Both the position numbers and the translations under genes were made by a program. Positions 1,106-61,082 of a stretch of DNA of 64,000 nt are shown here, in pieces (within the stretch, counting starts at the first letter, position 1; the number at the start of each line of letters is the position of its first letter). The notes below the pieces were generated by a model that was not told the DNA's origin, made no database searches, and saw only the letters and a list, made by a program, of their open reading frames with translations. The stretch lies in assembly GCA_014728035.1 (NCBI GenBank), contig WJMJ01000078.1:32001-96000 (forward strand), in the 5' to 3' direction. The stretch is from Promethearchaeota archaeon (GTDB lineage: Archaea; Asgardarchaeota; Thorarchaeia; Thorarchaeales; Thorarchaeaceae).

Positions 1106-1328
1106 ATTTTCGACCTGGGGAAGGAACAAGTATTCAGTGAACAATAATGACTAAGACAAATGAATTCCCACCCCGCGGATCTGACGGCCCCTGGTAAGCA
1201 CCAACCTCAGATTCCGAACCCATGAGATGCTCACATCGGGCATCTCATACTAATTCATTTCGAAGCATTGGGAAATATTGCAATTCAGTCACTCAAAGTA
1301 TGAGTGTAGATAAATAGGTGTTGAAAAT
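1106..1328 (+). ncRNA. Putative structured RNA element A (multi-branched, GGCCCC motif)
   Basis: Nested stems: ATTTTCGAC 1106-1114/GTTGAAAAT 1320-1328; AAATGAATT 1158-1166/AATTCATTT 1252-1260; CGGATCTGA 1176-1184/TCAGATTCCG 1207-1216; ATGAGATGCTC 1222-1232/GGGCATCTCAT 1238-1248. G-U pairs favour the + strand. Confidence 0.5.
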
Positions 1329-1334
1329 ATTCAG

Positions 1335-1991
1335 TCATATAGAAAATGTATCTCCGACTTCCATTTCAACCAATTCAATGTCGTGAATCTCATCAAGCAT
1401 TTGTCTGAGTTCTGAGATTCCTATCCCGCGAATGTGCATCGGAATTACAAATCGGGGTTTAATGATTTTAGCCGCTTCAGCCGCCTCGACATTATCCATG
1501 GTGTATGTATCCCCACAAGGCAACATTGCTACATCAACTGGACCAATTTGTTCCATTTCTGAGATTAGACCAGTATCTCCAGCATGATAGATAGTTTTAC
1601 CATCAATCTGTATAACAAATCCACAGCCATAGTCTTTGGGGTGAAAAGGTTCACCAGGTGACCTAAAACGTTCAGTGTTGTATGCGTGAACAGATTTGAT
1701 TTTTACATCTCTAACATTACATTCCTCATCAGGTGAAATCATATGGATTTCATGGTCAAATGACTTTGCACAGCCTTTTGTTCCAATTACAATGGTGTCT
1801 TCTGTTTTTACCAAATTGAAAGATTCGGGATGGCAGTGGTCTCGGTGTCCATGTGAAATGAGATAGATAGATGCAGGTCCATTGACCGAGTTCTTATGCT
1901 CATCAGAAACATATAGGTCTATGAAGATCTTTTCTACTTCATTTTCAATCATGAATCCCGCATGTCCTAGCCATTGGATATTTACGGTCAT
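1335..1991 (-). CDS. MBL-fold metallo-hydrolase (UlaG/UPF0173-like)
   Basis: WLGHAGF, SHGHRDH, YHAGDT and PMH motifs; start trimmed to MTVNIQW. Confidence 0.9.
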   Translation of the reverse strand: MTVNIQWLGHAGFMIENEVEKIFIDLYVSDEHKNSVNGPASIYLISHGHRDHCHPESFNLVKTEDTIVIGTKGCAKSFDHEIHMISPDEECNVRDVKIKSVHAYNTERFRSPGEPFHPKDYGCGFVIQIDGKTIYHAGDTGLISEMEQIGPVDVAMLPCGDTYTMDNVEAAEAAKIIKPRFVIPMHIRGIGISELRQMLDEIHDIELVEMEVGDTFSI

Positions 1992-2129
1992 AGTAACACA
2001 TACTATCAACTGTCTAACTTGCATATTTGTGTACCTGAAAAATAAGAAAATGTGCAACGAGTTGTCCAATCTTTCTCCTATTGTGTCTTATTGAAACGTG
2101 AAGAACAACCAATGCAAAGAACAGGAAGT

Positions 2130-3371
2130 CTAATACATTCTCTTCTTATCGGGATCAATTGAGGCAGCCTTCTTTGCCAAACGTACAAATGCCTTTGCCA
2201 TTGAAGAGGTGCTTACACCAGCTCCTGCAAGAAGTTGAAGTTTCTTTTTCGTTATCATAGGGATTTTACCTCTATTAGATGAAACATACCCTCTTGGACT
2301 CTCTAGAAATTCCATATGATCTGGTGGTGGTATTATTCCTGCAGCAAGTATAGGAAAACTAGCAATCATCTTTGCAAACATTTCTGCACATAAATCAAGC
2401 AACATATCAGGGTCGGGAAGGTCTTGTTTTCCGTACTTTTCGTTTGCAGCACGCCGAATACTTGCATCGAACATTCGTTCCAACTTATTTGCTCTTTCTG
2501 CTGTGAGACTCGATCCTCTACGGAATACTTCGTAAAGAATTGATTCACCCGCCATTCCCACTCCACTATCATCTGTTGAAGTTGTACGTACGTATCTTGA
2601 AGCGTGTCCTGCTTTGCGTTCTCTCTCAAGAACCTCGAGACGTTCATCAATTGTCTTCTGACCCATTTTGACAATTTCTTTATAGTTCGGTTTCATGATA
2701 TGAGTGTACATTATATCCCAATACAGGTCAGTTCCAGTACTCAGTGGATATACCTCAAATAGTTCAGAGGCAATTTTATTCATCGCCCAAATATCAATTC
2801 TATTTCGTTTTCTTCTATACATCATGTTCAATCCATGAAGGAGAATTGCCGTAATTACTCGAACATCAACCTGATCTGGGTCTGTGGATATCATCTCCCC
2901 AACCTGTTCAGCTGTTGAAACGTAATGTTTGTAGAGTACCATCGATTGGACAGTTACGTCCGGTGTCTTCGCACTTTTCTCGTCAATAATCATAACAAAG
3001 GTCTCAAAACTAGCTGTAATTGATTGTACATAGATACGGACAATAAGATCCAAGATTTCAAGTAGTTTGTATTCCTGATTCTTTTCAAGATTTCGAGAAA
3101 TTAATGAAACATCTGTCACAAACTCTGCAAAATCGTAATCCTCAGGAAGAAGTCCATTTACAATTATATAGTGATAGGCAGCTCCCAAATACAAGGCATC
3201 ATCGTCAGGTAGATTGGGAAAGAGACTGGCAATCAGCTCATTTTCTCTCTTAACAAACCGTCCAACAATCATCTCGTTTGTGGATTTGACTCGTTCAATA
3301 TGCTGAGCTGGATGCTCAAATTTACTCTTTAGCTCACTTAGCATACCCATATCTTGATTATCAACTGTCAT
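2130..3371 (-). CDS. Hypothetical alpha-helical protein (413 aa)
   Basis: Long ORF with an AAGGAGG ribosome-binding site upstream; 16 nt from the upstream gene; no recognised motif. Confidence 0.75.
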   Translation of the reverse strand: MTVDNQDMGMLSELKSKFEHPAQHIERVKSTNEMIVGRFVKRENELIASLFPNLPDDDALYLGAAYHYIIVNGLLPEDYDFAEFVTDVSLISRNLEKNQEYKLLEILDLIVRIYVQSITASFETFVMIIDEKSAKTPDVTVQSMVLYKHYVSTAEQVGEMISTDPDQVDVRVITAILLHGLNMMYRRKRNRIDIWAMNKIASELFEVYPLSTGTDLYWDIMYTHIMKPNYKEIVKMGQKTIDERLEVLERERKAGHASRYVRTTSTDDSGVGMAGESILYEVFRRGSSLTAERANKLERMFDASIRRAANEKYGKQDLPDPDMLLDLCAEMFAKMIASFPILAAGIIPPPDHMEFLESPRGYVSSNRGKIPMITKKKLQLLAGAGVSTSSMAKAFVRLAKKAASIDPDKKRMY

Positions 3372-3387
3372 TCATTTTCCTCCTTTT

Positions 3388-4761
3388 CTAATCTCCACGT
3401 GATAGAAATCGTGATAGGAAGCCACGTTTTCTTGGTTCATCCTCATCGGATTCATCTTCTTCTTCAGTCTTGTTTGCTTCTGGTAATCCCTCGCACATAG
3501 AAGCAATCTCTTCCTTGGACAGATTAAAGATACTCTGAAAAGCCTGATACTCTGGATTATCCGATAGGTCTCCGAAAGATATCCAGTCGCTACGAAGCCA
3601 GTCTTTTACTATAGTTCGAGGAAGAATATCTTCAAAGGATTGGTTCTTTTCCATACCTTCAGTTAAGTCCCGCAAGAGAGTTCTTCCTTCCATATGAGGT
3701 ATCGCTTCGCTAAGAATTCCCAGAGAGTCAGCCATTGATGTTGCCATGTAAATCTTATTTCCATCACGTCTCCAGATGGATTGTGTATCAAATACTTCAT
3801 CACCATTTCTATACTCATAGACTGCTCTTTGTGGGATGTAAATGATATTTGAGAAAATCTCTTGATTTACCTGACTCACTGATACAAGAACCGTGTCAGG
3901 TAACAGACCGAGCTGAACAATTGACACCACATCTATTGGTCTTTGATAATCAGGATGTATGTTAAGTAACATTCCCTTGGGTACAACAAAAGCTGCTTTT
4001 TTGATGGTTGTCTGAGGTGGTACGAAATCAACCTCTGAACCACAATGAGGACATTTTGATTCGACCATCTGGTTCAATGCTAGTTCTTTTTTGCATCCAT
4101 CCATACTACATTGATAGTATGCTTCCACAATTTCAAGTTCAGTAAGAAGCACTGCGTTGATACTTGTTGGTTTTCGAATCGATTCCACACCACCCCTAAG
4201 CTCTCTTCTCTCGAAAATCAAATGATGTTGGAGTGCCAACATGTGTTGTGCAACCTGATCAACATCCTCATAGTCAGCAGACACATCAATTAACTCGGAA
4301 GACCGCATTGCTTGAGCTCGTCTATACGAACCCGAATAATATTTGCAAGTCAAATCAATATAGTTTGTGTAGTCTGTAAGATTCACATCTGCATAAGGTG
4401 TGATGAGTAATCCAAGATAGTAGACATTGCCAGCATGTGACTTAACTTGATAGATATAACTACCAAGCTCGCCCGAAACCGGATTGACAAGCTCAGAACC
4501 ATACTTGATAGTGTGTAGGACATATTGCCTCATCTGAAATAAGTCAATTATATTGAGTTGTCCGAAGCCCACTTCTGCTAATGTGCGGGATCGCTCATCC
4601 TCAATTATCCCTTCCCCTCCTAGAATATTTGCAGAGTTGATCATTCCACCTGTTTCGGACATCGCACTGATTACTGCAATTGTCATAGAATTTTTCTCAA
4701 TGCGTTCTGCTATCGGTTCATGCTTTTCTTTGAATCTATCAAAAACTGGCGGTCTATCCAC
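3388..4761 (-). CDS. Hypothetical protein with central Zn ribbon, possible longin-like domains and acidic/basic tail
   Basis: CSMDGC...CPHC; N-terminal VISAMSETGG strand-turn pattern; tail EEEDESDEDEPRKRGFLSRFL. Confidence 0.7.
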   Translation of the reverse strand: MDRPPVFDRFKEKHEPIAERIEKNSMTIAVISAMSETGGMINSANILGGEGIIEDERSRTLAEVGFGQLNIIDLFQMRQYVLHTIKYGSELVNPVSGELGSYIYQVKSHAGNVYYLGLLITPYADVNLTDYTNYIDLTCKYYSGSYRRAQAMRSSELIDVSADYEDVDQVAQHMLALQHHLIFERRELRGGVESIRKPTSINAVLLTELEIVEAYYQCSMDGCKKELALNQMVESKCPHCGSEVDFVPPQTTIKKAAFVVPKGMLLNIHPDYQRPIDVVSIVQLGLLPDTVLVSVSQVNQEIFSNIIYIPQRAVYEYRNGDEVFDTQSIWRRDGNKIYMATSMADSLGILSEAIPHMEGRTLLRDLTEGMEKNQSFEDILPRTIVKDWLRSDWISFGDLSDNPEYQAFQSIFNLSKEEIASMCEGLPEANKTEEEDESDEDEPRKRGFLSRFLSRGD

Positions 4762-4953
4762 TTGTGCTTCACTTCCCTGAGAGTTCTCTTATTTTCTAAA
4801 TGGAATTGATAATTGAAGCTTCTTGGGATAGAGTGGTATGCGGTATGATCTGATATCCATTGTTTGCTTAGTAAAATGTTGTTAAATATTGAAACTTACA
4901 TAGATGCCCAGTTGTTTGGTTTGATTGAATCAAAGTATTAAGGAGGAATTGAC

Positions 4954-5904
4954 ATAACTGAATATGAAATTAGAACTGATACTGAAGGAATTCCCAATTC
5001 GGATTATCAGTTTAGAACATTTGCTATCGAACATCTAGCTGAAATGACTGCTTTTATCGAGAAGCTGAATGGTGACGGACTACTTAGTAAAAATGAACGA
5101 TTTCAAAAATACATAGAAGATACTTTAACTGGTCCACCAGAGGATTTCCCCGAGGCAAGGTCTGTAATAATCCTTGCAGTATTTACTCCTCTTGCAAAAG
5201 CTACTTTCCAATATGAAGGCAAGGAACTTGAAATTATGGTTCCTCCTCAATACTATCGAACAGGAAGAAAGATGGAGCAACTTGAATATACTGTGCAACA
5301 CGATATTATTGGTAATCCCACGAGCAAGATAAAATTTGAGTATAATGTATTACTGAAACATCTTGCAGTACGAAGTGGTCTGGCAAAATATGGCCGTAAT
5401 AATATTACGTACGTTAGAGATATGGGCTCTTTTTTTACGTTGTATGTCTTCCTGACAGACTATAGTTTTGAAGAAGACAACTGGGGCGATCTTGAGATGC
5501 TCGGAGAGTGTGAAAAATGTCGTTGGTGTGTTAGAAGTTGTCCTACTGGTGCCATCAGAGAAGAACTCTTTGTTTTGAATGCTGGAAAGTGTATAAGTCT
5601 GTACAACGAAGTTTCTGGCGAATTTCCGGAATGGATTTCTAGTTCTTATCATAACTCATTGATGGGTTGCATGAGATGTCAAATAAAGTGTCCTGCAAAT
5701 AAACAGGGGCTGAAAAAGCACATCCAACTTGATACTATTACTGAAGAAGAAACACGTGCAATAGTGAATGAAGAATATACTGAGAGTCTTATGAAATCGG
5801 TTTCAACCAAATTACGAGGTCATCAACCTACTACAAATGAAGAGCTTTATTCCGTATTTAGCAGAAATCTTCGAGCGGTATTAGAAGCAAATTCGTACGA
5901 TTAG
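4954..5904 (+). CDS. Epoxyqueuosine reductase-like / double 4Fe-4S cluster protein
   Basis: CEKCRWCVRSCPTGAI and GCMRCQIKCP clusters; LAVRSGLAKYGRNN. Frame is open from 4942; possible ATA start at 4954 after AGGAGG (first ATG is at 5044). Confidence 0.8.
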   Translation: MTEYEIRTDTEGIPNSDYQFRTFAIEHLAEMTAFIEKLNGDGLLSKNERFQKYIEDTLTGPPEDFPEARSVIILAVFTPLAKATFQYEGKELEIMVPPQYYRTGRKMEQLEYTVQHDIIGNPTSKIKFEYNVLLKHLAVRSGLAKYGRNNITYVRDMGSFFTLYVFLTDYSFEEDNWGDLEMLGECEKCRWCVRSCPTGAIREELFVLNAGKCISLYNEVSGEFPEWISSSYHNSLMGCMRCQIKCPANKQGLKKHIQLDTITEEETRAIVNEEYTESLMKSVSTKLRGHQPTTNEELYSVFSRNLRAVLEANSYD

Positions 5905-5934
5905 CAAATAAAAGGGAAAAATCCATCGAAAAAT

Positions 5935-6777
5935 GTGTGTTTGAAAATGGATAGAGACAAAATTGGTAGCATCTTGTATATTTTGATGTACATCATTGCT
6001 CTTGGATTTCTCACAATCGAAGTATTTCGTCTATATGGCGTGATTGATCAAACCTTTGTAGAAACTATGATGGCAAATCTTGCAGCTAATGATATCATAT
6101 CGTTTGTAGCTATTATAGTAGTACCAATTGTCTTCTTCCTATGGTTCTTTCGTTTCGCCTATAGTGTAGCTCCTCCGGAAGCAAAAAGACAATTATTCTT
6201 TTGCTTCATTCCCCTCGTTATTTTTCTCCTTGTAGGATTTTTTGCAATTCTTGCTATAATGTATATGGCCGTGACATTTATTGGAATATATCTAACTGGA
6301 GTGGGAACTGGCATAAGTGGCTATGAGGATGGTAAGCAGACAACAGGAATCACTTCTATAATTGTTCCAGTTATTGCTATTGTAGGAATAATTCTTGAAA
6401 TGGTAAATCAAGGTTGGTTTGATATCATTATACCTGTTCTAAGTCAATCACTTACTCTACCATGGCCATCTCAAGCTTCATCACCATCTCCCTCGGGATA
6501 TGGAATTGGATATTATATCTCGATGATTTCAATACTGTACAGTATTGTAAAAACAACACGCACCTCTTGGGCTCTTCGAACAGACCTTGTAGGCTCAGAT
6601 TTTACTGATGGGAATGCTGGGACATTATCCATGCTTCTAAATCCGTTATTCATGATATTTTGGGTCCTTACGGTGGTATTTTTGTTTCCATTGTTACCAT
6701 TCATCTACCTGTATTGGGGACTAATGATTCTCTATGTGTTAGCATGGATAACTGGAAAAGCAGGTCTCGTAAGCTGA
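5935..6777 (+). CDS. Multi-pass membrane protein of unknown function
   Basis: About 7-8 hydrophobic segments. Confidence 0.7.
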   Translation: MCLKMDRDKIGSILYILMYIIALGFLTIEVFRLYGVIDQTFVETMMANLAANDIISFVAIIVVPIVFFLWFFRFAYSVAPPEAKRQLFFCFIPLVIFLLVGFFAILAIMYMAVTFIGIYLTGVGTGISGYEDGKQTTGITSIIVPVIAIVGIILEMVNQGWFDIIIPVLSQSLTLPWPSQASSPSPSGYGIGYYISMISILYSIVKTTRTSWALRTDLVGSDFTDGNAGTLSMLLNPLFMIFWVLTVVFLFPLLPFIYLYWGLMILYVLAWITGKAGLVS

Positions 6778-6841
6778 TTATATCTGGATTGACTTGTGCT
6801 CAGATATGGTCACTTTTATCTAGTGAGTATAGTAATCATGG

Positions 6842-7564
6842 TTGAGAATGATGAGAAGATTTGCATCAGTGCTGTTGGTTGTTTCAATAATGGTTCTACT
6901 TGCCGGACCGATTAGAGCACAAGATAGTACGTATCCCACAGTAACCATCAATTTCCGAGAACTACGGATGGTTCCGGAGGACTTCTCATCGCTATCTCAG
7001 ACGGCCCCTCCATTCTCAAATAATGCCACTTTGAAAACTCTACTATCAAATAATGATACTCTTTTCTGGGAGCCTATTGGCAGTCGAAATGCAACATATC
7101 AAATTGATTCAGAGAGTAGCACTTTTGCAATTGTTCAGGTCAATTCCACTGGATTTTATCAGAAACTTGTAGGCCTATCACCCGATAATCAATCAATACA
7201 GTGGATTGCACCTCTAAGTGAAGCAATATCTAACAATTTTACGAATGTAGTAGTAGAAGCAATTGATTTCTTTGCTGATGAAGGGAGATATTGGGGACTT
7301 TGTGAAGAGATTGTCGTACTTCCTGGAGGTCTAGTAAATCAAGAAGATAACTTCGTATGGAGGTTAACATTTCATCTAATAGCTGAAGCTCAGAGGTGGA
7401 CTCTGCTTCTCAATAGTTCGGGTACTCTATTAAGCTATCAAGCAACAACAATTCCGTGTATAAGCTGTTGCAATACAATCCCTGTGATAGTCTTTGGAGG
7501 GGTTATCTTGGCTATTGCTATTCTGGGGATTTATGCTCTGAAAAATGGTGCTCCTTGGAAATGA
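6842..7564 (+). CDS. Secreted, C-terminally anchored surface protein
   Basis: Signal peptide (RRFASVLLVV...IRA-Q), C-terminal transmembrane helix preceded by PCISCC. Confidence 0.7.
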   Translation: MRMMRRFASVLLVVSIMVLLAGPIRAQDSTYPTVTINFRELRMVPEDFSSLSQTAPPFSNNATLKTLLSNNDTLFWEPIGSRNATYQIDSESSTFAIVQVNSTGFYQKLVGLSPDNQSIQWIAPLSEAISNNFTNVVVEAIDFFADEGRYWGLCEEIVVLPGGLVNQEDNFVWRLTFHLIAEAQRWTLLLNSSGTLLSYQATTIPCISCCNTIPVIVFGGVILAIAILGIYALKNGAPWK

Positions 7565-7569
7565 TAAAA

Positions 7570-8319
7570 TCAATCATTATATTTACCAAGTAATGTCTTT
7601 TCAGAATATCCAAACCCTCTATCTGATGGTAATTCTATGAGGATGAAGCTTGAATCAAAATTGGATGTGATAACTAATGGTTCATCAATATCAGCTCTAG
7701 CTTGGTCTTTTGTACTAAGAGTATATTCACCAATATCAAGATATCCAGTTGTCACATACAGAAATATTCGTCTTGGTTTATCAAAATCAAGTGTGATTGA
7801 CTCGCCTGTTTCAAGCATTGAGCGGTAAATTGTTGCGTTGGCATGTAATGGAACCACATCATCAGACTGCCATCCTGATGCAATAGGAAGAAGTTTGTTC
7901 TTCCATTTCTTTGGCATGTATGTTTTCTGCTCATAACTTGGCTCGATATCAAATTCATTTGGTTCGATCCAAATTTGATAGAAATTGGTATTCATATCAA
8001 TCAGATTGAATTCAGAATGGCTTATACCCGAACCTGCAGACATTCTTTGAACATCACATACTCCAATTATTGATTCATTACCTATACTATCTCTATGAGT
8101 CATCTGCCCCTCTTCAACAATGGTGATTATCTCCATATTTTTGTGCGAATGCGTTGGGAATCCAGTATTTGGTGCAACTAGATCATCATTAAAGACTCGT
8201 AATGGTCCAAATCGGATGTTATCAGGATCGTAGTAGTGTGCAAATGAGAACAACCAGTATGTTCGCAGCCATCCAAAGTCTGCAAAGTGTCTCTTATCTG
8301 CTTTGATTATCTTAAACAT
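7570..8319 (-). CDS. Pirin family protein (YhhW-like)
   Basis: FGPLRVFNDD, GFPTHSH, HRDSIG, MSAGSGISHSE, QIWI. Confidence 0.92.
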   Translation of the reverse strand: MFKIIKADKRHFADFGWLRTYWLFSFAHYYDPDNIRFGPLRVFNDDLVAPNTGFPTHSHKNMEIITIVEEGQMTHRDSIGNESIIGVCDVQRMSAGSGISHSEFNLIDMNTNFYQIWIEPNEFDIEPSYEQKTYMPKKWKNKLLPIASGWQSDDVVPLHANATIYRSMLETGESITLDFDKPRRIFLYVTTGYLDIGEYTLSTKDQARADIDEPLVITSNFDSSFILIELPSDRGFGYSEKTLLGKYND

Positions 8320-8676
8320 AAAGGATTCCTCTATTCAGAAGGAGCTCACAATATTGAGCGAATCTACAATACCCTTCTCTCATTCCATTATTGGATTTAT
8401 CCCTTATACATCTTAACTTTTCACTAAAATGCATAAATCTCGAATTCGATTTGTTTTTCAAAGCTTGTTCTATTGTTTTATATGAAAACAATAGAATCAT
8501 GTTCTTGATATTTTCCGGGTAATTATGGATTCTAATAGAAAATATGTCTGTATTATCAAACGGTATCGTAGAACTCTCGTCCATAATGATTTCAAACGGT
8601 ATAATATTATATATTATACCATAACATCTCCACCTATAGCGTTAAAGTGTAATTGATGAAAAAGGGATTGAAAATA

Positions 8677-9030
8677 ATGTCCGAAGAAGAATTTCCAAAA
8701 TTAAATCCTAATGAAACTGTGATTCGAGAAAACAAAGCAAAACATGTGCGACACGGTGGACAGACAAAACAAGGTGGTACTTTGATATTAACAGACCAAA
8801 GACTCATCTTTGGTCGTCATACCTCTTTCTTATTCTTCCTGTTCAAAAAAACTCACGTGGCTGCAGACATATCACTAGGTGACATCGACAAAATTGAAAC
8901 TCAAGGCATGCTCAGAAAGTCATTGGTTGTTCACTACACAGTTAACAACAACACCGAAACAGATGTCTTTGAAGTTAGTGATGTTGAAGAATGGGAGTCG
9001 AAACTAAAAGAATTGGTTAGCTCAGAGTAG
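8677..9030 (+). CDS. Small PH/GRAM-like domain protein
   Basis: ETVIRE...GGTLILTDQRLIF...ISLGDIDKIE...EEWESKLKE pattern. Confidence 0.7.
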   Translation: MSEEEFPKLNPNETVIRENKAKHVRHGGQTKQGGTLILTDQRLIFGRHTSFLFFLFKKTHVAADISLGDIDKIETQGMLRKSLVVHYTVNNNTETDVFEVSDVEEWESKLKELVSSE

Positions 9031-9240
9031 ACTCCAGATCAGGATTGTCAGCATATTTTATACTGTTGGTAGCCTTCTGATTTAATCATTTCAGAGTTTA
9101 TCGATTTTGACACCAAATCAAGATTGGTTTGGTGCTCCTCTTTTTTTTGTAAGTTTTCTCAATAAGAGCTATCAATGGCAAAAGCGTTATATCACCAAAA
9201 CGTCTGATTTCAGTTAGACTCCTACTCATTGTATTCTTAT

Positions 9241-9358
9241 GCGGAGGTTGCCAAGCCAGGCCAAAGGCGTAGGGTTCAGATCCCTATCTCGTAGGAGTAA
9301 AATGCGTGCTTGCCACGTATTTGCCTAATCGCGTGTTCAAATCACGCCCTCCGCACCA
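9241..9358 (+). tRNA. tRNA-Leu(CAG) with encoded CCA and a 30-nt intron (9299-9328) at a non-canonical site
   Basis: Acceptor GCGGAGG/CCTCCGC-A-CCA; D arm GCC..GGC; anticodon stem TAGGG/CCCTA with TT-CAG-AT (CAG 9277-9279); variable arm CTC-GTAG-GAG; T arm GCGTG-TTCAAAT-CACGC. Confidence 0.93.
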
Positions 9359-9367
9359 TTCTACAAA

Positions 9368-10114
9368 TTATGATTCTTCGATTACTACTGCACCACTGTT
9401 GTATAACCAAAATGAATCAGGTTTTATTGAGCCAATTAGTGTTATATTGCTATCTCCTGCGGAGGCTATTCCTTTGTCTGTAGCTACCGACAATGAACAA
9501 AGTGCTGGCACTTGTGTATAGACTGCTTTATAGACCATCTCCGAGGTTATTCTTCCGGTCACGAAGAATATTGAATTTTCCAACTCCCATTTTTCTGAAA
9601 TTGCTAATCCAATTACTTTATCCATCGAATTGAGCCGACCAATATCTTCAGCAAAGAGGAAATCATCTTCTAAAGGATTGACCAACATAGAAGCATGTGT
9701 TCCGCCCGTTTCTACATGGAGAACTTGATTCTTACGCATTTGATTTACATATCCAAAAAGACTATCATAAGTGAGACTGAATTGCCTTGTGCTCTGAGGA
9801 TGGTAAATATGGATATTCTCAGTTTTTAATTGAAGAAATCTTTCAATGAGATCTATTCTGTTCCGCGAAGAAAGCGTGATACTTCCAGGCTCCACTGAGA
9901 GTAGCTTGATATCTTGAAAATCATCAACAAGTCCACTTGACATCAAATATCCTATTGCTAACATATCTTCCAAACCAGGACTACAAGAAAATTTGGCCAG
10001 CATGAAATCTTCAAGCCAGAGTTCTAATTTTGTTTCAACTACAATATCTTCCAATTGTTCCTGAAGCTTCCCATCGAAATATCTTTGAAAGCTAAACTGT
10101 TTTGAGTCGTCCAC
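9368..10114 (-). CDS. fdhD: Formate dehydrogenase accessory sulfurtransferase FdhD family
   Basis: ETGGTHAS, EDIGRLNSMDKVIG, TGRITSEMVYKA. Confidence 0.85.
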   Translation of the reverse strand: MDDSKQFSFQRYFDGKLQEQLEDIVVETKLELWLEDFMLAKFSCSPGLEDMLAIGYLMSSGLVDDFQDIKLLSVEPGSITLSSRNRIDLIERFLQLKTENIHIYHPQSTRQFSLTYDSLFGYVNQMRKNQVLHVETGGTHASMLVNPLEDDFLFAEDIGRLNSMDKVIGLAISEKWELENSIFFVTGRITSEMVYKAVYTQVPALCSLSVATDKGIASAGDSNITLIGSIKPDSFWLYNSGAVVIEES

Positions 10115-10197
10115 GCTGGAACCTCACACTAACACAATCACTTAATCCTATTATTTCTAAGGTTTATTATCAGATGTTAGACTGAACAGAAAATATG

Positions 10198-10722: not shown

Positions 10723-10739
10723 GCTTGAATGTATCCCTC

Positions 10740-51561: not shown

Positions 51562-51813
51562 TCATTGTCCTCCCGACTATTGCGAATCGAGTTGGGCGAA
51601 ATATAACAGCTTCGGAATAAGTAGAAGTAAGAGCGATTTACGCGCCAATGTTTCGGGGGATTCATCAGTGCTTTTTGAAATAGGTCCGTTGCGAAAAAGG
51701 CTATATAATGTCATTATACATTCAATTCTAAGTCATGAACCATATCGGTCTAGATACTACCGACAATTCACTCTGTTCAAGACGTAACAAATGACCCAAG
51801 GCGGAGATAGACT

Positions 51814-52350: not shown

Positions 52351-52425
52351 ATTGGCGGAAATAGCTAGACATAATTATACTATCCTATGCTTTTTCATCT
52401 AGAAACGGCACTGGATGAACATATC

Positions 52426-53559
52426 ATGCCCGATTCAAAGTTGAATATTGATTTTCTAGAAAAACTGTGTAATGCTTTCGGCCCTAGTGGTTTCGAACGT
52501 GAAGCACAGAAAGTTGCGTTCGATTATGGTAAAGAGTTTGCAGAGGACATTGAATATGACCGGATGGGTTCCGTTGTATTCAAGCATGGGTCAAAAGGTC
52601 CAAAAATCATGCTTGCTGGTCATATTGATGAAATCGGATTTGTTATCACTGAGATAACAAAGAAAGGTTTCCTCAAGTTTCATCAGCTGGGTGGTTGGTG
52701 GGATCAGACTCTTCTAACTCAAGAGGTTCTCATTCATCCCTCTCAAGGAGATGACGAGATAATTGGAATCATTGGTGCACCTCCACCACATATCCTCAGC
52801 CCGGAGGCTCGCAGCAAGGTGGTTACCAAAGATAAGATGTACATCGATATTGGAGCTTCTTCTGAGAAAGAGGTCAAAGATCTTGGTATTAGAGTTGGTG
52901 ACCCTGCAGTTCCTTATGCATTCTTCAGAACCATGGAGCGAATTCGAGAAGAGAAAAAGGAAGACTCTGACGAGAAGGAAACTCGTAAAGTGACCCTCGC
53001 AGCAGCAAAGGCATTCGATGATCGAATAGGCGTTTTCATTGGCCTTGAAGTACTTCGACGGTTATCAGAAGATAAGATTGAACACCCGAATACACTCTAT
53101 ATGGTCTCAACAACTCAGGAAGAGGTTGGATTGCGAGGAGCCAGAACGTCTGCACAGATGATTCAACCAGACATTGGTTTCTCTCTAGATGTTGACATTT
53201 CTGGTGACGTACCTGGCGCGGAAGGTATTGTTCAAAAAATGGGCAAAGGAGTGTCCATCTCAGCAGGAGACGGTTCTATGATTCCAAATCCAAAATTCCG
53301 TCAATTTGTTACAGAAGTAGCTGAGGAGATTGGTGTTCGTCATCAACCTGCATTTCTTAAATCTGGAGGTACAGATGCTGGAATCATACACATAACAGGA
53401 ATGGGGGCTCCCTCATTGTTCTTGGGCATTCCAACTCGTCACATTCATTCACATCATGCCTTACTTGATCTGTCTGATGTAGAGAATGCAATCACACTGC
53501 TTGTCGAAGTAATCAAACGACTCGATAAGAAGACAGTTGATAGCTTCACCAAGTTGTAA
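52426..53559 (+). CDS. M42 (TET) aminopeptidase
   Basis: GHIDEIG, KAFDDR, QEEVGLRGA, GGTDAG, RHIHS. Confidence 0.93.
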   Translation: MPDSKLNIDFLEKLCNAFGPSGFEREAQKVAFDYGKEFAEDIEYDRMGSVVFKHGSKGPKIMLAGHIDEIGFVITEITKKGFLKFHQLGGWWDQTLLTQEVLIHPSQGDDEIIGIIGAPPPHILSPEARSKVVTKDKMYIDIGASSEKEVKDLGIRVGDPAVPYAFFRTMERIREEKKEDSDEKETRKVTLAAAKAFDDRIGVFIGLEVLRRLSEDKIEHPNTLYMVSTTQEEVGLRGARTSAQMIQPDIGFSLDVDISGDVPGAEGIVQKMGKGVSISAGDGSMIPNPKFRQFVTEVAEEIGVRHQPAFLKSGGTDAGIIHITGMGAPSLFLGIPTRHIHSHHALLDLSDVENAITLLVEVIKRLDKKTVDSFTKL

Positions 53560-53573
53560 AAAAAGAAATAGAA

Positions 53574-53593
53574 AGTCAGTGTAAAGACACTGA
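53574..53593. terminator. Hairpin between convergent genes
   Basis: GTCAGTGT-AAAG-ACACTGAC flanked by A tracts (U tracts on the - strand). Confidence 0.5.
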
Positions 53594-53617
53594 CAAAAAA
53601 GCTGGTCACTTCAGTGA

Positions 53618-54706
53618 CTAGCGTTCTCTTTTTCCTTCAATAAATTCATCTACACGTTTTCTTGCTTCAAAATCATCAATTTGATATCTAGGATGTTTGA
53701 AACTGTAAGAGCTGATACTAGATAGTTCTCCACCAATTCCACGGTCTAACGCAATCTTAACAGCACGAATGACATCAATAATAACACCAGCACTGTTTGG
53801 TGAGTCTTGTACCGAGAGTTTAAGATCAAGGTCTAAAGGTAGGTCTCCAAAAGCTCTCGAACGCATGCTAATGTAGCATACTTTGTTGTCTTCGAGGAAT
53901 GGTACGTAATCGCTTGGACCAATCTTAGTGGGTAATTCGTACTCTACGCAGCTTGTGACCGCTTCGGTCTTACTGACTCTCTTTGAGGCTAGTCTGTCTT
54001 CAACCTGCATATTTTCAAAATCTGTGTTTCCACCGATATTCAACTGGTACGTGTTCTTCAGAATAAGACCTCGTTTATCAAAAAGTTGTGCTAATACACG
54101 ATGCAGAATAGTTGCACCTAGTTGACTCTTAATGTCATCACCAGCACAAGGTATGCCTTTTTCGACAAAACCCTTTGCGATTGGATCGTCGGGATTTGAA
54201 ACAATGAACTCTGGAATTGCATTTATGAAACCAATACCTGCATCTAATGCTGCTTGTGCATACATTCTCGACCCATCCGCACTACCAACTGGTAGATAAC
54301 TGACCAACACATCTGCGTCGACTTTTTTGAGTTCTTCAGCAACATCAACTGGTTCAATTTCACTTTCATCATATGCGAAAAATGACTCACGCATATGTGG
54401 TGCCACTCCATCCGATATGGGTCCTGGAAGAACTTTCACCCCAGTTTTTGGAACATCTGGAGCAAATCTCTCGCAACAGTTTGGTTCCTCCCAGATTGCA
54501 TCCGCAATGTCTAATCCAATCTTTCGTGAGTTTGCCTCAAAAGCAGCGACAAATTTCAAATCTTTAGGGAAATATCCGCCAAAATCGACGTGCATGAGGC
54601 CTGGAATCTCCTCATTTGCTTTGGCATCTCGATAGTAGTGTACACCTTGAATTAGCGCAGAGGCGCAGTTTCCAAGTCCTGCTATTGCAACGCGAACTTC
54701 ACTCAT
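53618..54706 (-). CDS. ino1: Inositol-3-phosphate synthase
   Basis: GLGNCASALIQG, SYLPVGS, GDDIKSQLGAT, QLNIGGNTDF, DSPNSAG. Confidence 0.95.
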   Translation of the reverse strand: MSEVRVAIAGLGNCASALIQGVHYYRDAKANEEIPGLMHVDFGGYFPKDLKFVAAFEANSRKIGLDIADAIWEEPNCCERFAPDVPKTGVKVLPGPISDGVAPHMRESFFAYDESEIEPVDVAEELKKVDADVLVSYLPVGSADGSRMYAQAALDAGIGFINAIPEFIVSNPDDPIAKGFVEKGIPCAGDDIKSQLGATILHRVLAQLFDKRGLILKNTYQLNIGGNTDFENMQVEDRLASKRVSKTEAVTSCVEYELPTKIGPSDYVPFLEDNKVCYISMRSRAFGDLPLDLDLKLSVQDSPNSAGVIIDVIRAVKIALDRGIGGELSSISSYSFKHPRYQIDDFEARKRVDEFIEGKRER

Positions 54707-54781
54707 AATTATGTCACCTTACTAAGGTATTCTTTGGCCATAGAATAGTCAGTCCTTTTAAGATTATCGAGGTGGATGTTT

Positions 54782-55594
54782 CTATTCATCAAGATCGTTT
54801 TCAGATTCAGCAGCATATTTCATATACAACACTTTTTTTGCCCCAGCCACTGTCTTTGGTCCTATACCTGAAATCTGCGTCCAATCATCAAGACGAGTAA
54901 TAGCTTCGTAAGGAGAACCAAATTTTTCAAGTATGGACTTTGCTCGGACTACGTTTACGCTAGGAAGTCCAGCAATGAAAAATTCCTGTTCATCAGCCAT
55001 GGAGTCCAATCCTTTTCTGGTTCTAATTGTAGGTAACCTTTTTCCTTTAGTTTCACGTTTCTCTTCGTCACCTATAAGAACCCCATAAAGCAAGCCAGCA
55101 GAATGTAATGCATTGAACCCCTTGATGATTTCAATCCCTTTTTCTTCAATACTTTCAATGAGAGCATCGAGAGCCGATGGATGGATATAGCTTGCACGTT
55201 CCATAGTAACATAGAATGGTTTCCCTTTGGTCTTGTTCGATTTGAATGGGATATACACACAGCCCTTCATAGGATCTCTACGAATAGCCAGAATATTTTC
55301 AATCAACAGGTACGGATTTTCATATTGAAGTAAAGCATCCATCTGTTTTGTTAGTCGCGGCACCCCTGATTTACTTCCTTTTAGTGTACTGACAAGATCA
55401 TTGACCGTTTTTCTCTCAATGGCAATTCCTTCCATTCCCAACACATCTCCAATTGGGATTTTTTCGATGGTGAAAGGAATATCTTCCTTCTTGAGCATCT
55501 CCATGAGCAACTTAACAGAGTTCATTCTTTTGCCGCTTGTTTCATGTACATCTATTACAATCTGCGGAACATTACCAAAAAGGTCCATCTGCAT
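54782..55594 (-). CDS. Short XPF/ERCC4 structure-specific nuclease with HhH motifs
   Basis: IDVHE, GD, IERKTVNDL, GLPSV and ISGIGPKT. Confidence 0.88.
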   Translation of the reverse strand: MQMDLFGNVPQIVIDVHETSGKRMNSVKLLMEMLKKEDIPFTIEKIPIGDVLGMEGIAIERKTVNDLVSTLKGSKSGVPRLTKQMDALLQYENPYLLIENILAIRRDPMKGCVYIPFKSNKTKGKPFYVTMERASYIHPSALDALIESIEEKGIEIIKGFNALHSAGLLYGVLIGDEEKRETKGKRLPTIRTRKGLDSMADEQEFFIAGLPSVNVVRAKSILEKFGSPYEAITRLDDWTQISGIGPKTVAGAKKVLYMKYAAESENDLDE

Positions 55595-55596
55595 TG

Positions 55597-56232
55597 CTAA
55601 TCCTCATTAAAGAGTGTCATTACTGCTGCCATAGAGATTTCTCGTGCTAGATTAGCCTCATCACTAGAACCAATTACTATGACATCTCCATTTTCCGGTC
55701 TAAGACTCTCTCGAATTAGCAGTGCTTCAGCTTCATACTCAAGTACAACTTTGAAATCATCAGGAGGCATCACCAACAGCCCATCATTGAAAAGCAGAGT
55801 TGTTGCTCCTGCTTTGCCATATCCGCCTTGGATTATCGCTTCATCCCGTTGTCGGATTCCATCAGTAACTTGACCTGCCTTTCCTTTCACTATGTTCGCA
55901 TATGCCTTTTCAAGTACTACAAGATTAGGAATTTCCAAGAATAGTCCAAAAGGGACATCACTCACAATAGCATCGAATAGTTTCTGACCGGACTCGGTTA
56001 GTTTCTGACCCTGTTTGCCCTCAGCAGTGATATAGTCACTTTCTGAGAGTCTTTTGAGAAGTGTTCTTGCACTGCCTTCACCTATTGACAGATTGCTGCA
56101 TAGTTCATATCTTCCAAGTGGTTGCTGACGGCCAATCATTATCAAAGCAACTGCTACATGGTACGGACGGAAAGATGGTGCCACACGTCCATCAGCAGGT
56201 TCTGCAATATTGTTGATCTCGTGAATCCACAA
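55597..56232 (-). CDS. Winged-helix protein, DUF4443-like
   Basis: PLGRYEL...IGEGSARTLLKRL, GIRQRDEAI...GATT. Confidence 0.75.
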   Translation of the reverse strand: MWIHEINNIAEPADGRVAPSFRPYHVAVALIMIGRQQPLGRYELCSNLSIGEGSARTLLKRLSESDYITAEGKQGQKLTESGQKLFDAIVSDVPFGLFLEIPNLVVLEKAYANIVKGKAGQVTDGIRQRDEAIIQGGYGKAGATTLLFNDGLLVMPPDDFKVVLEYEAEALLIRESLRPENGDVIVIGSSDEANLAREISMAAVMTLFNED

Positions 56233-56250
56233 TGTGTTTACACTCCAATT

Positions 56251-56877
56251 TTATTTTCTCTCCTCTGCTTTTGATTCTTCGCAATCACAGTCTGGTAGGT
56301 CTTTCGAATCAAACCAAATATAATCACTCATTTGCTCTCTTATTGTTTCGTCAACTATGGGAACTCCCAAGGCAAAAATTACTGTATTTGACATAACATG
56401 AACCATCATGAAGAATAGACCTGTCAGAAGTGTGACGTGATATGGAATAGAAAAGGCATATGCATAGCCTGCATTTGTAATGAGGTCGAAAAGCATTGTT
56501 AACAAAGCACCACTTACTCCTAATTCGATCACTCTTACTCTTCGCGACGTTCTCGCGGTTATATTTCGACCAAGTATTGATCCAGACATTGAAATAAACA
56601 TCCAAGCTACAACTTGAGAAAACCAAATCGGGGGAATAAATGCACCCCACGGATTGATACTGCCATATATTATAGACATGATAATAGTACTCCAAGCTGC
56701 CATTTGGAATCCAAATAGATATGCAGTTATGAAGAGGATTACAGTTCCAAATTCTACATTGGGAATACCCACTAATGTATAATTTCCAACAATTGCCAAT
56801 GCGGTCATTATTGAAGCAATGGAGACCCACCTACTACGAGACAAATTCTCTTTCTTCATATGCAGGTCTCCATTCAA
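56251..56877 (-). CDS. ECF transporter S component (probably cobalamin, CbrT-like)
   Basis: IPNVE, six transmembrane helices, FDLITN, HVMSN; adjacent to DUF4430. Confidence 0.75.
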   Translation of the reverse strand: MNGDLHMKKENLSRSRWVSIASIMTALAIVGNYTLVGIPNVEFGTVILFITAYLFGFQMAAWSTIIMSIIYGSINPWGAFIPPIWFSQVVAWMFISMSGSILGRNITARTSRRVRVIELGVSGALLTMLFDLITNAGYAYAFSIPYHVTLLTGLFFMMVHVMSNTVIFALGVPIVDETIREQMSDYIWFDSKDLPDCDCEESKAEERK

Positions 56878-56882
56878 AACAC

Positions 56883-57617
56883 CTATTTCTTCTTGAATAG
56901 TGCTATAAAAGCTACGAGTGTTATAATTGCAATAGAAGTAATTCCTAGAACTACCAACATATTTGTAGTAGTAATGGAATGTAATTCAAATTCTAGGACA
57001 AATGGCGTACCAAACGAGTAGCTTGTTTTTGCATATACAAGAACTCCAGTTGTCAAGTCATATGACAATTCTGTTTCTTGTGGTTCTCCAAACGTGGGTT
57101 CATCTTGAACATAAGTAAAGGTGATACAATTGTATTCTTTTCCGGATACTTCTACAATTTCATAACTTGATGTCATTGTGCCATTCATGAAATTCCCTGG
57201 AATTCGTTCAGCAGAAGCATATGCACTCGAGTTGAGATTTGCGATGCTAGTCTCATCAGTTTCAATAATCAGACCAGGTAAGAAGGATTCTAATCCCCAC
57301 ACCCCCAAAACAAAATCTTTTGCGATAGCAGTATCATTTGCATCAAGAGATACATTTCCAATTGTTAGTCTACCTTGAACATCTTCATGTATTTGTTGAA
57401 TTGAAAATGTAATCAAACTGTTTGGTTCTGCAATCCATGCTGTTGTTCCAACCCAGAAGAGACCAAATGCCGTATCTGGGCTATCAATTAACCTCCATGC
57501 AATCTCAGGGCTGTTAATCAAATCCGGAGAGGGTATTCCATAGTGTTCATTTTGATATGCAGTTCCCGCGAGAATAACACTCGTGACAACAAGTAGTGTT
57601 AATAGTCTTGCATTCAT
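56883..57617 (-). CDS. Secreted, C-terminally anchored protein
   Basis: Signal peptide, YDLTTGVLV, C-terminal transmembrane helix followed by KKK. Confidence 0.7.
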   Translation of the reverse strand: MNARLLTLLVVTSVILAGTAYQNEHYGIPSPDLINSPEIAWRLIDSPDTAFGLFWVGTTAWIAEPNSLITFSIQQIHEDVQGRLTIGNVSLDANDTAIAKDFVLGVWGLESFLPGLIIETDETSIANLNSSAYASAERIPGNFMNGTMTSSYEIVEVSGKEYNCITFTYVQDEPTFGEPQETELSYDLTTGVLVYAKTSYSFGTPFVLEFELHSITTTNMLVVLGITSIAIITLVAFIALFKKK

Positions 57618-58099
57618 TCTTTATACCTTCTTGAAATAATCAGTAAAAATCCCACCCCGATTGCGCCTATAACTACAATGCCAACAAGTAGAGATGGATC
57701 CGTGGAATCTGTTGTTGGAGCATTATAGGATACAAGCTTCCATTCAACTGTATCATAGTCATCAAGAATATACTTGTTAGCTGCTATGGATCCATATTCA
57801 CCATTAATCCAATATTGCCACCACTTTCCTTCTTGACTACTTTGTGAAACTCCATCAATTGCAGTTACAAATACAAGATTACCTTCCCATTCATACTCAA
57901 CTGGCAGAACAGATTCTGTTAGATTTAACACGGTATCTGAAGACAAGTCATTGAAAGTTCTAAGAGTCCCATTACCAAAATCGACCTGCAGTGTTATTCC
58001 CAATGCAGCTTGATTGTACTCGGATGCAGATATACTAGTAGAAACTGATGTCGGACATAGAAGTAAAACAACAACCAGTAGATGCAATATCTTTTTCAT
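57614..58099 (-). CDS. DUF4430 (transcobalamin C-terminal-like) surface protein
   Basis: VDFGNG, FVTAIDGV, WWQYWING...AA..Y.L.D.D.VEW. Confidence 0.85.
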   Translation of the reverse strand: MKKILHLLVVVLLLCPTSVSTSISASEYNQAALGITLQVDFGNGTLRTFNDLSSDTVLNLTESVLPVEYEWEGNLVFVTAIDGVSQSSQEGKWWQYWINGEYGSIAANKYILDDYDTVEWKLVSYNAPTTDSTDPSLLVGIVVIGAIGVGFLLIISRRYKE

Positions 58100-58324
58100 T
58101 GACGTATCTCCATAGGATAGGATAACCTGTCCTACAACAACCCCCTCTTAAATCTGACTAAAGACCTATTCTCAATTTACAAAATCCAGCTATGAACTGA
58201 AGAAGTACAGAAACCGCCCGCAACTCCATAGGAAGATAAGATTATTTCATTATTTAAAGTAGAAAATGAGTACTAGGTAGTAGATCCAGTTATTCTTCTT
58301 GAAACTGATTTGAACTGTAATCAA

Positions 58325-58521
58325 GACAGTGACATCTGATATCGTGAATCAGCTGGGCAGAGAACTCTGCAAGGGGACCTAGCCCGTAAATAGGGCTATT
58401 AGAACGAACGAACGCGGTTTGACGCAAGTCGCTAATCGCAGTTTGTTACATGGGAGGGGTGCCCAGACAATTAAACACGTCAGATGTCATGTCATTAGCA
58501 AATTTCTTCAGTCCCCTGAAG
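58325..58521 (-). ncRNA. Putative structured RNA element B, upstream of the DUF4430/ECF operon (strand uncertain)
   Basis: GACAGTGACATCTGA 58325-58339/TCAGATGTCATGTC 58480-58493; CTGGGCA/TGCCCAG; GCAGAG/CTCTGC; TAGCCC/GGGCTA; CTTCAG/CTGAAG 58506-58521. Confidence 0.55.
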
Positions 58522-58661
58522 TCCTCTCTCACATATATTATCCGTCACAGTTGCTTAAATATTGTTTGATGCGCGTTATTTCTGACTTCACACCTAAATA
58601 CACAATATCGCATACTAGAGATTCATCTAAGACTAACCGAAGGACTAATACGTAGATACCT

Positions 58662-59336
58662 ATGCATCAAAAAATCATTGGCGGGCGAACACTTGTGGCT
58701 CAAAGAGAAAAGAAATACCCAGGACACCTTTTTGTTTTAGAAGGAATAGATGGTGCTGGTAAGACTGAAGTCTGTCATCATGTAGCTGGGCATTTATTGG
58801 AAAAAGGACTAGACGTGATAATATTACGAGAGCCCACAGATGAAAGTAAATGGGGAAAAAGAATACGTCAAAAATCTCAGAGAGGTGAATTAACCCCCTC
58901 TGAAGAACTAGAACTATTCATCAGGGATAGAGACTGGAATATTCAAAATCGATTACTTCCCGCAATGGAGAAGGGACAAATTGTTCTCATGGATCGCTAC
59001 TTTTTTGCCACAGGAGCGTACCAAAGTACTAGCACAGGAATACATTGGTCTGAAATTCTAAAGCGAAATCGTGAAGAAATAAATGCACTCGAACCGGACA
59101 TAATCTTCATTCTTGATATACCAGCCGAACAAGGTCTCTGCCGAGTAATGGGAAGGGGTTGTGAAACAAACCAGCAATTTGAAAAACTGGATCGGCTTGT
59201 TCAAGTTCGCCAAAGGTATCTTGAAATGGCAGAAAGAGATACAGGCAACTATTTTCTTATTGATGCCACACTGCCATTGGAGAAAGTAGTGGATTCAGTT
59301 CAAAATGTCATTCTTTCATTTATAAATATTCAATAA
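58662..59336 (+). CDS. tmk: Thymidylate kinase
   Basis: LEGIDGAGKT, REPT, DRY...AYQ, PD. Confidence 0.93.
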   Translation: MHQKIIGGRTLVAQREKKYPGHLFVLEGIDGAGKTEVCHHVAGHLLEKGLDVIILREPTDESKWGKRIRQKSQRGELTPSEELELFIRDRDWNIQNRLLPAMEKGQIVLMDRYFFATGAYQSTSTGIHWSEILKRNREEINALEPDIIFILDIPAEQGLCRVMGRGCETNQQFEKLDRLVQVRQRYLEMAERDTGNYFLIDATLPLEKVVDSVQNVILSFINIQ

Positions 59337-59464
59337 TTTTAGGGATATTAAAAAATCCGCGGAAAGTATAGTGACAAGCTTTTTTAGTAACTCGGCAAAC
59401 ATCGCTATAGAATAGGTTGTACTTTCGTACAAGTTCAACTGAAGGGACCTGGAGAAAAACAAGA

Positions 59465-60604
59465 ATGCCTGTTGCATTAGTGCTTATCGATTGGGATTCA
59501 AAAGTCGGAGCTGTATTGAAGGCAAAGGTTCCCGCTGATTTTGCAGACTATTACAGGGAAGACCTCAACACGGAAATTATGAGAATTTTCACTTCACACG
59601 CTATGGGTGATGCAACTGCAGGATTTTCATCATTGAGTGTTAGAATCGGTGGAGAAGAATACGCTGTTGCCTCGTACTATACCGGAATTGTTAGAGAAGA
59701 AGAGCAATATTGTATCTCATTGATGTTAAACACTTCAGAAGATCCAAAATCCTATGAGGCTGCTATTACATCAATAGTGTCTCATCTCACAAATTCAGTT
59801 GCAACAATGACTGATAGTGAAGTACAAGAAGAACTTGAGAACACTTACAGACGAATCATTCGTCTTGCTGGAATGACTGACGAATCCCGTCTGGCAAGGC
59901 TGTTCGCTGATGAATTAGCAAGAGCTGTATTTCCAAAATTATGGAAGGGCGGCATCTCAAAGGAGGACTTGGAAGAATGGCTAAAGATGGTCACTGGACT
60001 TCCAAGTGTTAGTGTAGATTCTATACTTGCACCCTTTGAAGAACTTGGTCTCGTAAAAACCGAATGGGTTGATGAGATTGGTCGTACTTGTGTATTCATG
60101 ATTAAAGACCTTGAAGTATTCAGGGCACCTCCATTACTTGCCATGGAAGCAGCAGGTAAAGTTCTAGACCCAGAATTATCTGCAGAGTATAAGATGGAAG
60201 TACTGGAATTTCTACGGGAATGGAAGAAGACGCCTGAAGATACCGTATCCATAGCTGAGATTCTAGCAGATCCAGATTGTTATGACACTTTGAGTGAACT
60301 GAGAAGACGACCTCAGAACATGGTAGAATTAGAAGCAACTTTGGGAATTCCACCAAAAGAGCTAAAAGAGGCAGTTCAGACTTTGAAAAAATACAGAGTT
60401 GTTTCTGAACGTAGAAGAGAAGATGCATCAGGTGAAACAGACAAATGGATTTTCCTTCTAAACGACATTCGAGTTCGTTTGTTCTTCCCAGAATATTTCT
60501 TAGCTTCTCTACCACAAGATCTGGAAGAAAACCCGGAAGATACCAAACTTAGAGAACTAATTCATCACCATCTACGACTTCTTCGAGATAATTTCCCAAG
60601 ATAA
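59465..60604 (+). CDS. Longin/uDENN-like domain protein with winged-helix domains
   Basis: MPVALVLIDWDSKVGAVLKAKVP...VASYYTG...CISLML; C-terminal ELEATLGIPPKELKEAVQTLKKYRVV. Confidence 0.7.
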   Translation: MPVALVLIDWDSKVGAVLKAKVPADFADYYREDLNTEIMRIFTSHAMGDATAGFSSLSVRIGGEEYAVASYYTGIVREEEQYCISLMLNTSEDPKSYEAAITSIVSHLTNSVATMTDSEVQEELENTYRRIIRLAGMTDESRLARLFADELARAVFPKLWKGGISKEDLEEWLKMVTGLPSVSVDSILAPFEELGLVKTEWVDEIGRTCVFMIKDLEVFRAPPLLAMEAAGKVLDPELSAEYKMEVLEFLREWKKTPEDTVSIAEILADPDCYDTLSELRRRPQNMVELEATLGIPPKELKEAVQTLKKYRVVSERRREDASGETDKWIFLLNDIRVRLFFPEYFLASLPQDLEENPEDTKLRELIHHHLRLLRDNFPR

Positions 60605-60610
60605 ACAAAG

Positions 60611-61082
60611 AGGCCGTTCTAATTATGGATGGCCTGTTCGTATTTTCTCGCAACAGCGGAATATACAGAGTTAATTTGCGGATTTCTCATATTGGTTAAC
60701 ATATTATTGTGATATTCGCATTACTATACTGTCTTTTTTCGGTATTCGCAGAGTTATGAGAGCCCCTTTCACTTCAAAGACACTAGAAAGCTTCTTATGC
60801 GGAAAAGTACACACTGTAATTGCCTTCGAGTACCCGATACTCGTGTACGGCCCCGTCTTGAACTCGCATTCACAACATTAACGGTCCCAAGAAACGAGTT
60901 CTAGCATTGGTCCCAAATAATGCAGGTCCCCCTTGCAAATACTTGCGCATAATATGTGTTTTCCGTACACGGTGAACGGGTTTCCGGACGCGGATGGTTC
61001 GCATCTGCGAGCCAATCCGGTCCCATTTGGATGAATAATCAGGATTGCTCGATACGCATTCGTTCTCGGGCCCATTGGGCCC
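60611..61082 (+). ncRNA. Putative large structured RNA element C with seven GG(T/C/G)CCC motifs
   Basis: More than 10 stems, many with + strand G-U pairs; motifs at 60849, 60883, 60909, 60925, 61019, 61068 and 61077. Confidence 0.65.

Follow-up and report, generated by a model that had tools for sequence, protein, structure and literature searches.

Two predicted non-coding RNA families with a common GGUCCC motif, and a probable micropeptide gene, in a Thorarchaeota genome

Do three GC-rich elements that carry the hexamer GGYCCC in one Thorarchaeota (Asgard) genome belong to a single family of regulatory RNAs? The question is raised by a 64,000-nt stretch of that genome (G000:C44:32001-96000, hereafter the window), for which an earlier note described elements A, B and C as three dispersed copies of a large structured RNA displaying the hexamer unpaired. 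Comparison with related genomes, including one of the same genus (G001), answers that they are not one three-copy family. Instead, as judged from sequence, they are two new non-coding RNA (ncRNA) families with a common motif, B and C, and one micropeptide gene, A. We consider it very probable that B and C are genuine RNA genes, and equally so that A is coding and unrelated to them. In searches of the available literature we met no account of ncRNAs, whether regulatory or structural, from Thorarchaeota, nor any of B or C.

The observations on which the three-copy proposal was built stand for the most part. The motifs quoted for A, B and C were all found at the positions and on the strands reported, the regions are locally GC-rich (42.6, 48.2, and 45.6%, respectively, vs. 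39.9% for the window), and as originally delimited they fold better than shuffled sequences, with z-scores of -2.55, -4.66, and -4.20. An excess of GGYCCC over chance is evident in C, which has five copies where 0.16 are expected (0/20,000 shuffles), but is marginal for the single copies in A and B (p 0.04 and 0.085).

Element C lies downstream of a gene for a 395-amino-acid longin-like protein (P0001) and faces a TPR gene. Its parts are listed here, all on the plus strand.

60782-60801 (+): promoter of RNA C (transcription factor B recognition element, BRE, plus TATA box; TATA 60792-60799), conserved in relatives
60820-61030 (+): RNA C, predicted multibranch ncRNA of ~210-230 nt, ends inferred from TATA spacing and conservation; z -3.27
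60828-60849 (+): 5' strand of the closing helix P1, pairing with ~60957-60982; two-sided changes in all 8 core pairs
60851-60856 (+): CCCGUC linker, nearly invariant (invariant alignment columns), predicted unpaired in most homologs
60860-60900 (+): helix P2, loop with GGUCCC copy 1 (60883-60888); 93% of cells paired, motif unpaired probability 0.87
60909-60930 (+): GGUCCC copy 2 at 60909-60914, found family-wide, and copy 3 at 60925-60930, an addition of this genus, by alignment and folding
60942-60949 (+): conserved segment CUUGCGCA, by alignment
60986-61024 (+): P4, the 3' hairpin domain, with GGUCCC 61019-61024 paired, by covariation and folding

C had been placed at 60611-61082, but its start is predicted near 60820 behind its own promoter, and 60611-60780 is without conservation. 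A BRE-TATA promoter is visible 5' of nearly all homologs, and a matrix from 37 distinct variants, a set that includes the near-identical site of a sister species, scores C's own site at 29 bits and the next best in the genome at 18. The covariance model of C (R2), a 162-position core, matches the window at 60837-60994 with 105.7 bits. The predicted architecture runs from the long closing helix P1 through CCCGUC, P2 with its GGUCCC loop, a second GGUCCC, a variable hairpin and CUUGCGCA to the 3' hairpin domain. Two-sided change was seen in 18 of 30 pairs, the covariation score was reached by 0/500 shuffles, and slid-alignment controls lower the paired fraction to 37-50%; these controls ignore relatedness and are to be read as support rather than as a p-value. 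In the helices of the plus strand, G-U outnumbers A-C by 108:22. The opposite strands of B and C, which offer GNRA-like hairpins, were ruled out by such counts and by the promoters, and a conserved open reading frame (ORF) within C was ruled out by motif spacings that are not a constant multiple of three.

The hexamer of C persists where the helices around it change. Across 50 homologs its mean predicted unpaired probability is 0.67 vs. 0.41 overall, and genera g2 and g12 have entirely different helices P2 and P3 but still carry both GGUCCC copies. Each RNA has 1-4 copies at variable spacing, with extras gained in single genera, and the CCCGUC linker is changed in divergent genera only. The claim that GGYCCC is unpaired in C needs dividing: several copies are predicted to be unpaired on a covarying scaffold, while the last (61019-61024) is predicted to be paired.

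The model of C matches 79 of the 87 genomes of the class, nearly always in one copy, and all 16 genera of the family. Such single-copy retention in every genus suggests a core function. A search of 26 other Asgard families gave no convincing match (one at E 0.08), and viral contigs yielded none to C and one 14.5-bit partial match to B (L378), which was not accepted. In nearly all genomes examined, a homolog of C sits just 3' of the P0001 ortholog, and the genes on its own 3' side differ among genomes. P0001 itself (59417-60604) is 78-97% identical across the family, has no Pfam match, and has 2-3 distant paralogs per genome.

Element B is found 2.3 kb from C, between a DUF4430 gene (-) and the thymidylate kinase gene tmk (+), an arrangement in which B and C flank two genes and are read away from them. 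Its parts lie on the minus strand.

58325-58530 (-): RNA B, predicted ncRNA of ~205 nt; match of its model R1 at 58327-58531, 179 bits
58554-58562 (-): TATA-like box, aligned with TTTAT-type boxes of g1, g3, and g15 homologs
58510-58517 (-): 5' leader AGGGGAC in a hairpin loop, candidate pseudoknot with B's own motif; 84% of cells paired
58402-58413 (-): unpaired UUCG-repeat linker, by alignment and folding
58365-58379 (-): nearly invariant GGUCCCCUUGCAGAG (motif and 3' strand of the inner helix), by alignment and covariation

Nine pairs of B show two-sided change, a covariation score reached by 0/500 shuffles, and the G-U to A-C ratio of its helices is 30:7. B occurs once each in 27/87 class genomes, covering 6 genera. 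Several genera that have retained its flanking genes lack B at the site, as do genera that have retained C. In G001 and G081 other sequence follows it. The DUF4430 gene has its own TATA and palindrome regardless of the presence of B, and a cobalamin riboswitch for that gene was ruled out by this promoter and by the lack of an Rfam match. The earlier idea of long structured untranslated regions (UTRs) fails for B and C because they have their own promoters and changing neighbors; a cis riboswitch is likewise ruled out, as neither RNA holds a fixed position 5' of one gene type. The palindrome (TAGGAT-N-ATCCTA, 58118-58134), just 5' of the DUF4430 gene, is conserved in nearly all genera with or without B and is likely a transcription-factor operator. 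Transposase-like insertions occur at or near B in two genomes, removing the 5' leader in G009 (L041) and moving B away from tmk in G008 (L106).

For the predicted RNAs B and C, comparison among relatives shows separate predicted promoters, helices that covary, presence in single copy, strand specificity, and conserved unpaired pyrimidine-rich segments, namely GGUCCC two or more times, CCCGUC, UUCG, and CUUGC. They also resemble each other. The string GGUCCCC(C)UUGCA, reported earlier as common to both, is genuine and forms the best-conserved part of B, although the GCA..TGC hairpin drawn beside it in B is not conserved and that GCA pairs with an upstream ACUGC instead. The most invariant stretch of B is GGUCCCCUUGCAGAGUU, the first 12 nt of which are identical in C of genera g5, g7, and g12; GGUCCCCUUGCA of B is present in C too, and the order of parts is alike (C-rich linker, helix of similar sequence, UUCG, motif). 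B may be an old duplicate of C, but we hold this paralogy only tentatively because the models do not cross-match: each of R1 and R2 finds nothing but its own locus, whether in the genome or, with filters off, in the window.

Element A differs from both. It is flanked by an AsnC-type HTH gene, from which the window copy is divergent, and an MBL hydrolase gene, and it contains the following two features.

1147-1197 (+): proline-rich 16-codon ORF ending Asp-Gly-Pro-Trp-stop, in which GGCCCC 1186-1191 encodes Gly-Pro
1222-1248 (+): 11-bp terminator-like hairpin after the ORF, with compensatory changes in the G001 copies

A had been taken as intergenic, but its C-tract reads as Phe-Pro-Pro codons and its hexamer as Gly-Pro. 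This genome has two further copies of A, and none that resembles B or C. Against the copy at C25:62336, 6/7 differences fall at third codon positions and 5 are synonymous; together with the fixed frame and conserved stop, this is the pattern of a small ORF. Short intergenic ORFs ending Gly-Pro-Trp (GPW) number seven in this genome vs. 0-2 for ten control endings, and further ones occur in G001, G010, and G033. Their Gly-Pro codons are GGYCCC in 5/13 copies and synonymously changed in 8/13. Among the g1 copies of A the final Gly-Pro-Trp codons keep a flanking helix although its sequence has changed, and A may have a minor RNA role besides its predicted peptide. Three GPW copies, each with an AGGAG ribosome-binding site, lie tail-to-tail with prolyl oligopeptidase (S9A) genes (G000:C25:13900(-), 119345(+), and 224186(+); L254-L256), and it is possible that micropeptide and peptidase are substrate/enzyme pairs. 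In two genomes of genus g10 (G010, L180:~1020-1066; G033, L112:~4030-4079) an inserted GPW ORF separates the longin-like gene from RNA C. With its 12-17 residues, proline richness and C-terminal Trp, A is similar to pausing upstream ORFs of the PPW type, such as AZIN1 uCC; it departs from them in its GPW ending and in that, for most copies, no same-strand gene follows. The GPW micropeptides, which escape gene callers by their small size, form a separate lead.

Thus the proposal of undescribed structured RNAs in an Asgard archaeon is upheld for B and C, and lost for A. An Rfam search of the window at E<=5 gave only one tRNA and four weak matches elsewhere, with nothing on A, B, or C, and eight homologous loci had no match at E<=2. 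The statement that these are not signal recognition particle (SRP) RNA, RNase P, or a known riboswitch is borne out for B and C, and 5S is excluded likewise; the genes for RNase P, SRP, and 5S are on contigs C151, C25, and C9, with 23S also elsewhere. Conservation in relatives splits along the same line, with B and C covarying and keeping the motif and A losing its hexamer in most peptide copies. The ATCTGA/TCAGAT helix said to be common to A and B is a coincidence, because relatives of both carry other sequence in its place. Nor do we see a regulon of motif-bearing UTRs, since GGYCCC is not enriched in intergenic DNA genome-wide (GGTCCC 52 vs. 68.6 expected, GGCCCC 39 vs. 38.9, counted with crude gene calls that masked C itself). 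Membership of A, B, and C in one family forming a GGYCCC regulon can still draw on the 12-nt string in the best-conserved parts of B and C and on the flanking helix kept in the g1 copies of A, but with models that match neither each other nor A, and with no such enrichment, we regard it as very improbable.

What might B and C do? Our preferred reading, to which we give a probability of roughly 0.45, is that their unpaired C-rich segments are base-pairing seeds for GGGAC-type partners. C, probably a separately transcribed family-wide ncRNA, would display several GGUCCC seeds on its multibranch scaffold, and these would initiate pairing, loop to loop, with G-rich GGGAC-type sites of other RNAs; the partners could be ncRNAs, or mRNAs whose leaders bear the site at the ribosome-binding position. 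B, with a GGGAC-type site in its own leader, might be self-masked or a decoy for C. The wider picture of a Thorarchaeota RNA-RNA network, in which C seeds pair with GGGAC leader loops and the sister RNA B, both seed and target, tunes them as a self-masked copy or decoy, is more speculative and, taken whole, rather unlikely. Consistent with seeds are the promoter, covariation, and distribution of these RNAs, the motif being unpaired more often than the rest, and its survival where helices were replaced. The leader of B is complementary to its motif in most homologs, 12/20 beating shuffled leaders at p<=0.05, and several rare motif variants are C-to-U changes (C of G014 and G030; B of G015) with which pairing to GGGGAC via G-U is still possible.

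One natural candidate target also fits. The leader of a 102-amino-acid gene on contig C37 (G000:C37:25963-26010(-); L251:~1464-1510, minus) has GGGAC in a predicted hairpin loop and a second site, GGGGACC, 5 nt before the start codon, and between the two lies a 10-nt complement of B's UUCG linker. Two GGGACC sites are complementary to B and C, and this is the sole intergenic site with a three-block complement of C. The linker was unused in finding the leader, which ranks 1/6,221 among candidate leaders for it. The leader is kept in G001, with a G-U pair. Its central 17 nt equal a stretch of some bacterial 23S rRNAs, and the 102-amino-acid gene and its tandem paralog are family-wide, without a Pfam match.

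Several results weigh against pairing seeds. The C37 site was found after the fact, and orthologous leaders from ten other genera lack it, two of them retaining a bare GGGGAC. Genomes with B do not have the target pattern more often than genomes without B, GGGGAC at Shine-Dalgarno spacing is not clearly enriched (16/174 vs. 9/158), and the search found no family-wide partner. The leader-motif pseudoknot of B shows one-sided changes only, with no two-sided change, and a nearly invariant motif in variable copy number would suit a protein ligand equally well. Because of its absence in ten genera and the lack of association with B, the C37 leader is at most a genus-specific candidate target. A metagenome scan for this leader found no further copy tied to that gene.

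Other partners were considered in turn, and complements in 16S and 5S that stood out in individual genomes failed on covariation. A 16S target, at adjacent sites near 1109 and 1125, was ruled out, as G001, G020, and others have altered or lost these sites with C unchanged; a 5S target (an 11-bp complement here) was ruled out by helix II, which differs in 8/8 other Thorarchaeota-like 5S genes read. A U3/snR30-like rRNA guide falls on the same grounds. Complements of the motif in 23S are short, G-U-rich matches only, a cis partner downstream of C was ruled out (28/54, no better than control), and the remaining intergenic GGTCCC sites are mostly paired or unstructured. The rRNA and tRNA genes gave side observations. 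The 5S gene, with its highly variable helix II, is directly upstream of a DUF1512 gene in 8/10 other loci (L201:1501-1620, L598-L606), and not in the G001-like L597. Many Thorarchaeota 16S genes exceed 1,500 nt, reaching 2,411 (L225, L237, L241, L242, and others), which suggests introns or insertions, and a structured, C/D-box-like segment is conserved in the 16S leader. The window has a tRNA-Leu(CAG) with a long variable-region insertion at 9241-9355 (Rfam alignment), and contigs C26 and C161 of this genome carry divergent tRNA clusters (15 or more on C26), suggestive of a virus, mobile element, or contaminant contig.

The chief competitor of pairing seeds is a protein. B and C may be multivalent protein-binding RNAs, either a sponge or a ribonucleoprotein scaffold, with one Thorarchaeota protein reading GGUCCC in loops and junctions, and 1-4 nearly invariant, unpaired copies at variable spacing, with extras in single genera, are what such a scaffold would look like; the lack of a conserved RNA partner in our searches points the same way. 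A sponge, however, needs competing mRNA sites, yet intergenic GGTCCC and GGCCCC are not enriched in the count described above, and the one copy in B has its complement in the leader of B itself. No candidate protein is identified, a partner protein not having been searched for. We regard protein binding as a credible alternative of less than even probability, and of the two options in the earlier note, kissing contacts have somewhat more support than a single-protein sponge. It is improbable that C instead serves as a housekeeping RNA, catalytic or associated with ribosome or tRNA, whose linkers are not seeds but the core of an independent tertiary fold. Single copies in 16/16 genera, fixed synteny, and an unusually conserved promoter would suit this, as would the likeness of the motif to the 3' acceptor strand in several tRNAs, to whose 5' ends it is complementary if G-U pairs are counted, but C was not found in the 26 other Asgard families (save the E 0.08 match), the standard RNAs have their genes elsewhere, the 16S and 5S complements do not covary, and the tRNA matches are brief and rich in G-U. 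A reading of B and C as DNA elements, either operators or the inverted termini of an old mobile unit that encloses tmk and the longin-like gene, is suggested by their outward orientation around two genes and their common motif; strand-specific G-U excess, compensatory helices, own promoters, single copies, the lack of an insertion sequence match, and the absence of B at its site in genera keeping C make it highly unlikely. A first test of Asgard RNA-based regulation could use exact mutations, which follow from the motif that B and C share, the complement inside B, and the natural candidate target.

How do B and C compare with known RNAs? In size range, single copy, and own promoter they are like RNase P RNA (RF00373), SRP RNA (RF01857), 5S rRNA (RF00001), and U6 (RF00026), but they are not the first three, whose genuine genes are on other contigs. 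A short string likeness of C to the catalytic stem-loop of U6/U6atac was rejected, as the U6 model has no match on B or C at E<=10. CsrB and RsmZ carry many GGA loop motifs and have CsrA as their partner. C and B are similar in having a repeated short motif unpaired on helices in varying copy number, but they have GGUCCC rather than GGA, 1-4 copies, and a motif that is not enriched in intergenic DNA.

Closer parallels come from C-rich RNAs of Firmicutes. RsaE binds mRNAs through an unpaired UCCC motif, which blocks initiation (PMC2790875), and RosA is a sponge of the C-rich small RNA RoxS (PMC8216469). B and C are unlike these in being archaeal, in their larger multibranch fold closed by the long P1, and in their longer GGUCCC motif; no family-wide mRNA target was found for them, and with no Rfam match there is no sequence homology to RsaE. 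Nonetheless, the resemblance extends over several features (PMC2790875, PMC8216469): conserved, repeated C-rich motifs that are unpaired in the predicted structures, several predicted intergenic RNAs of one organism with a common motif and, in one genus (g1) only, a G-rich candidate partner site at the ribosome-binding position.

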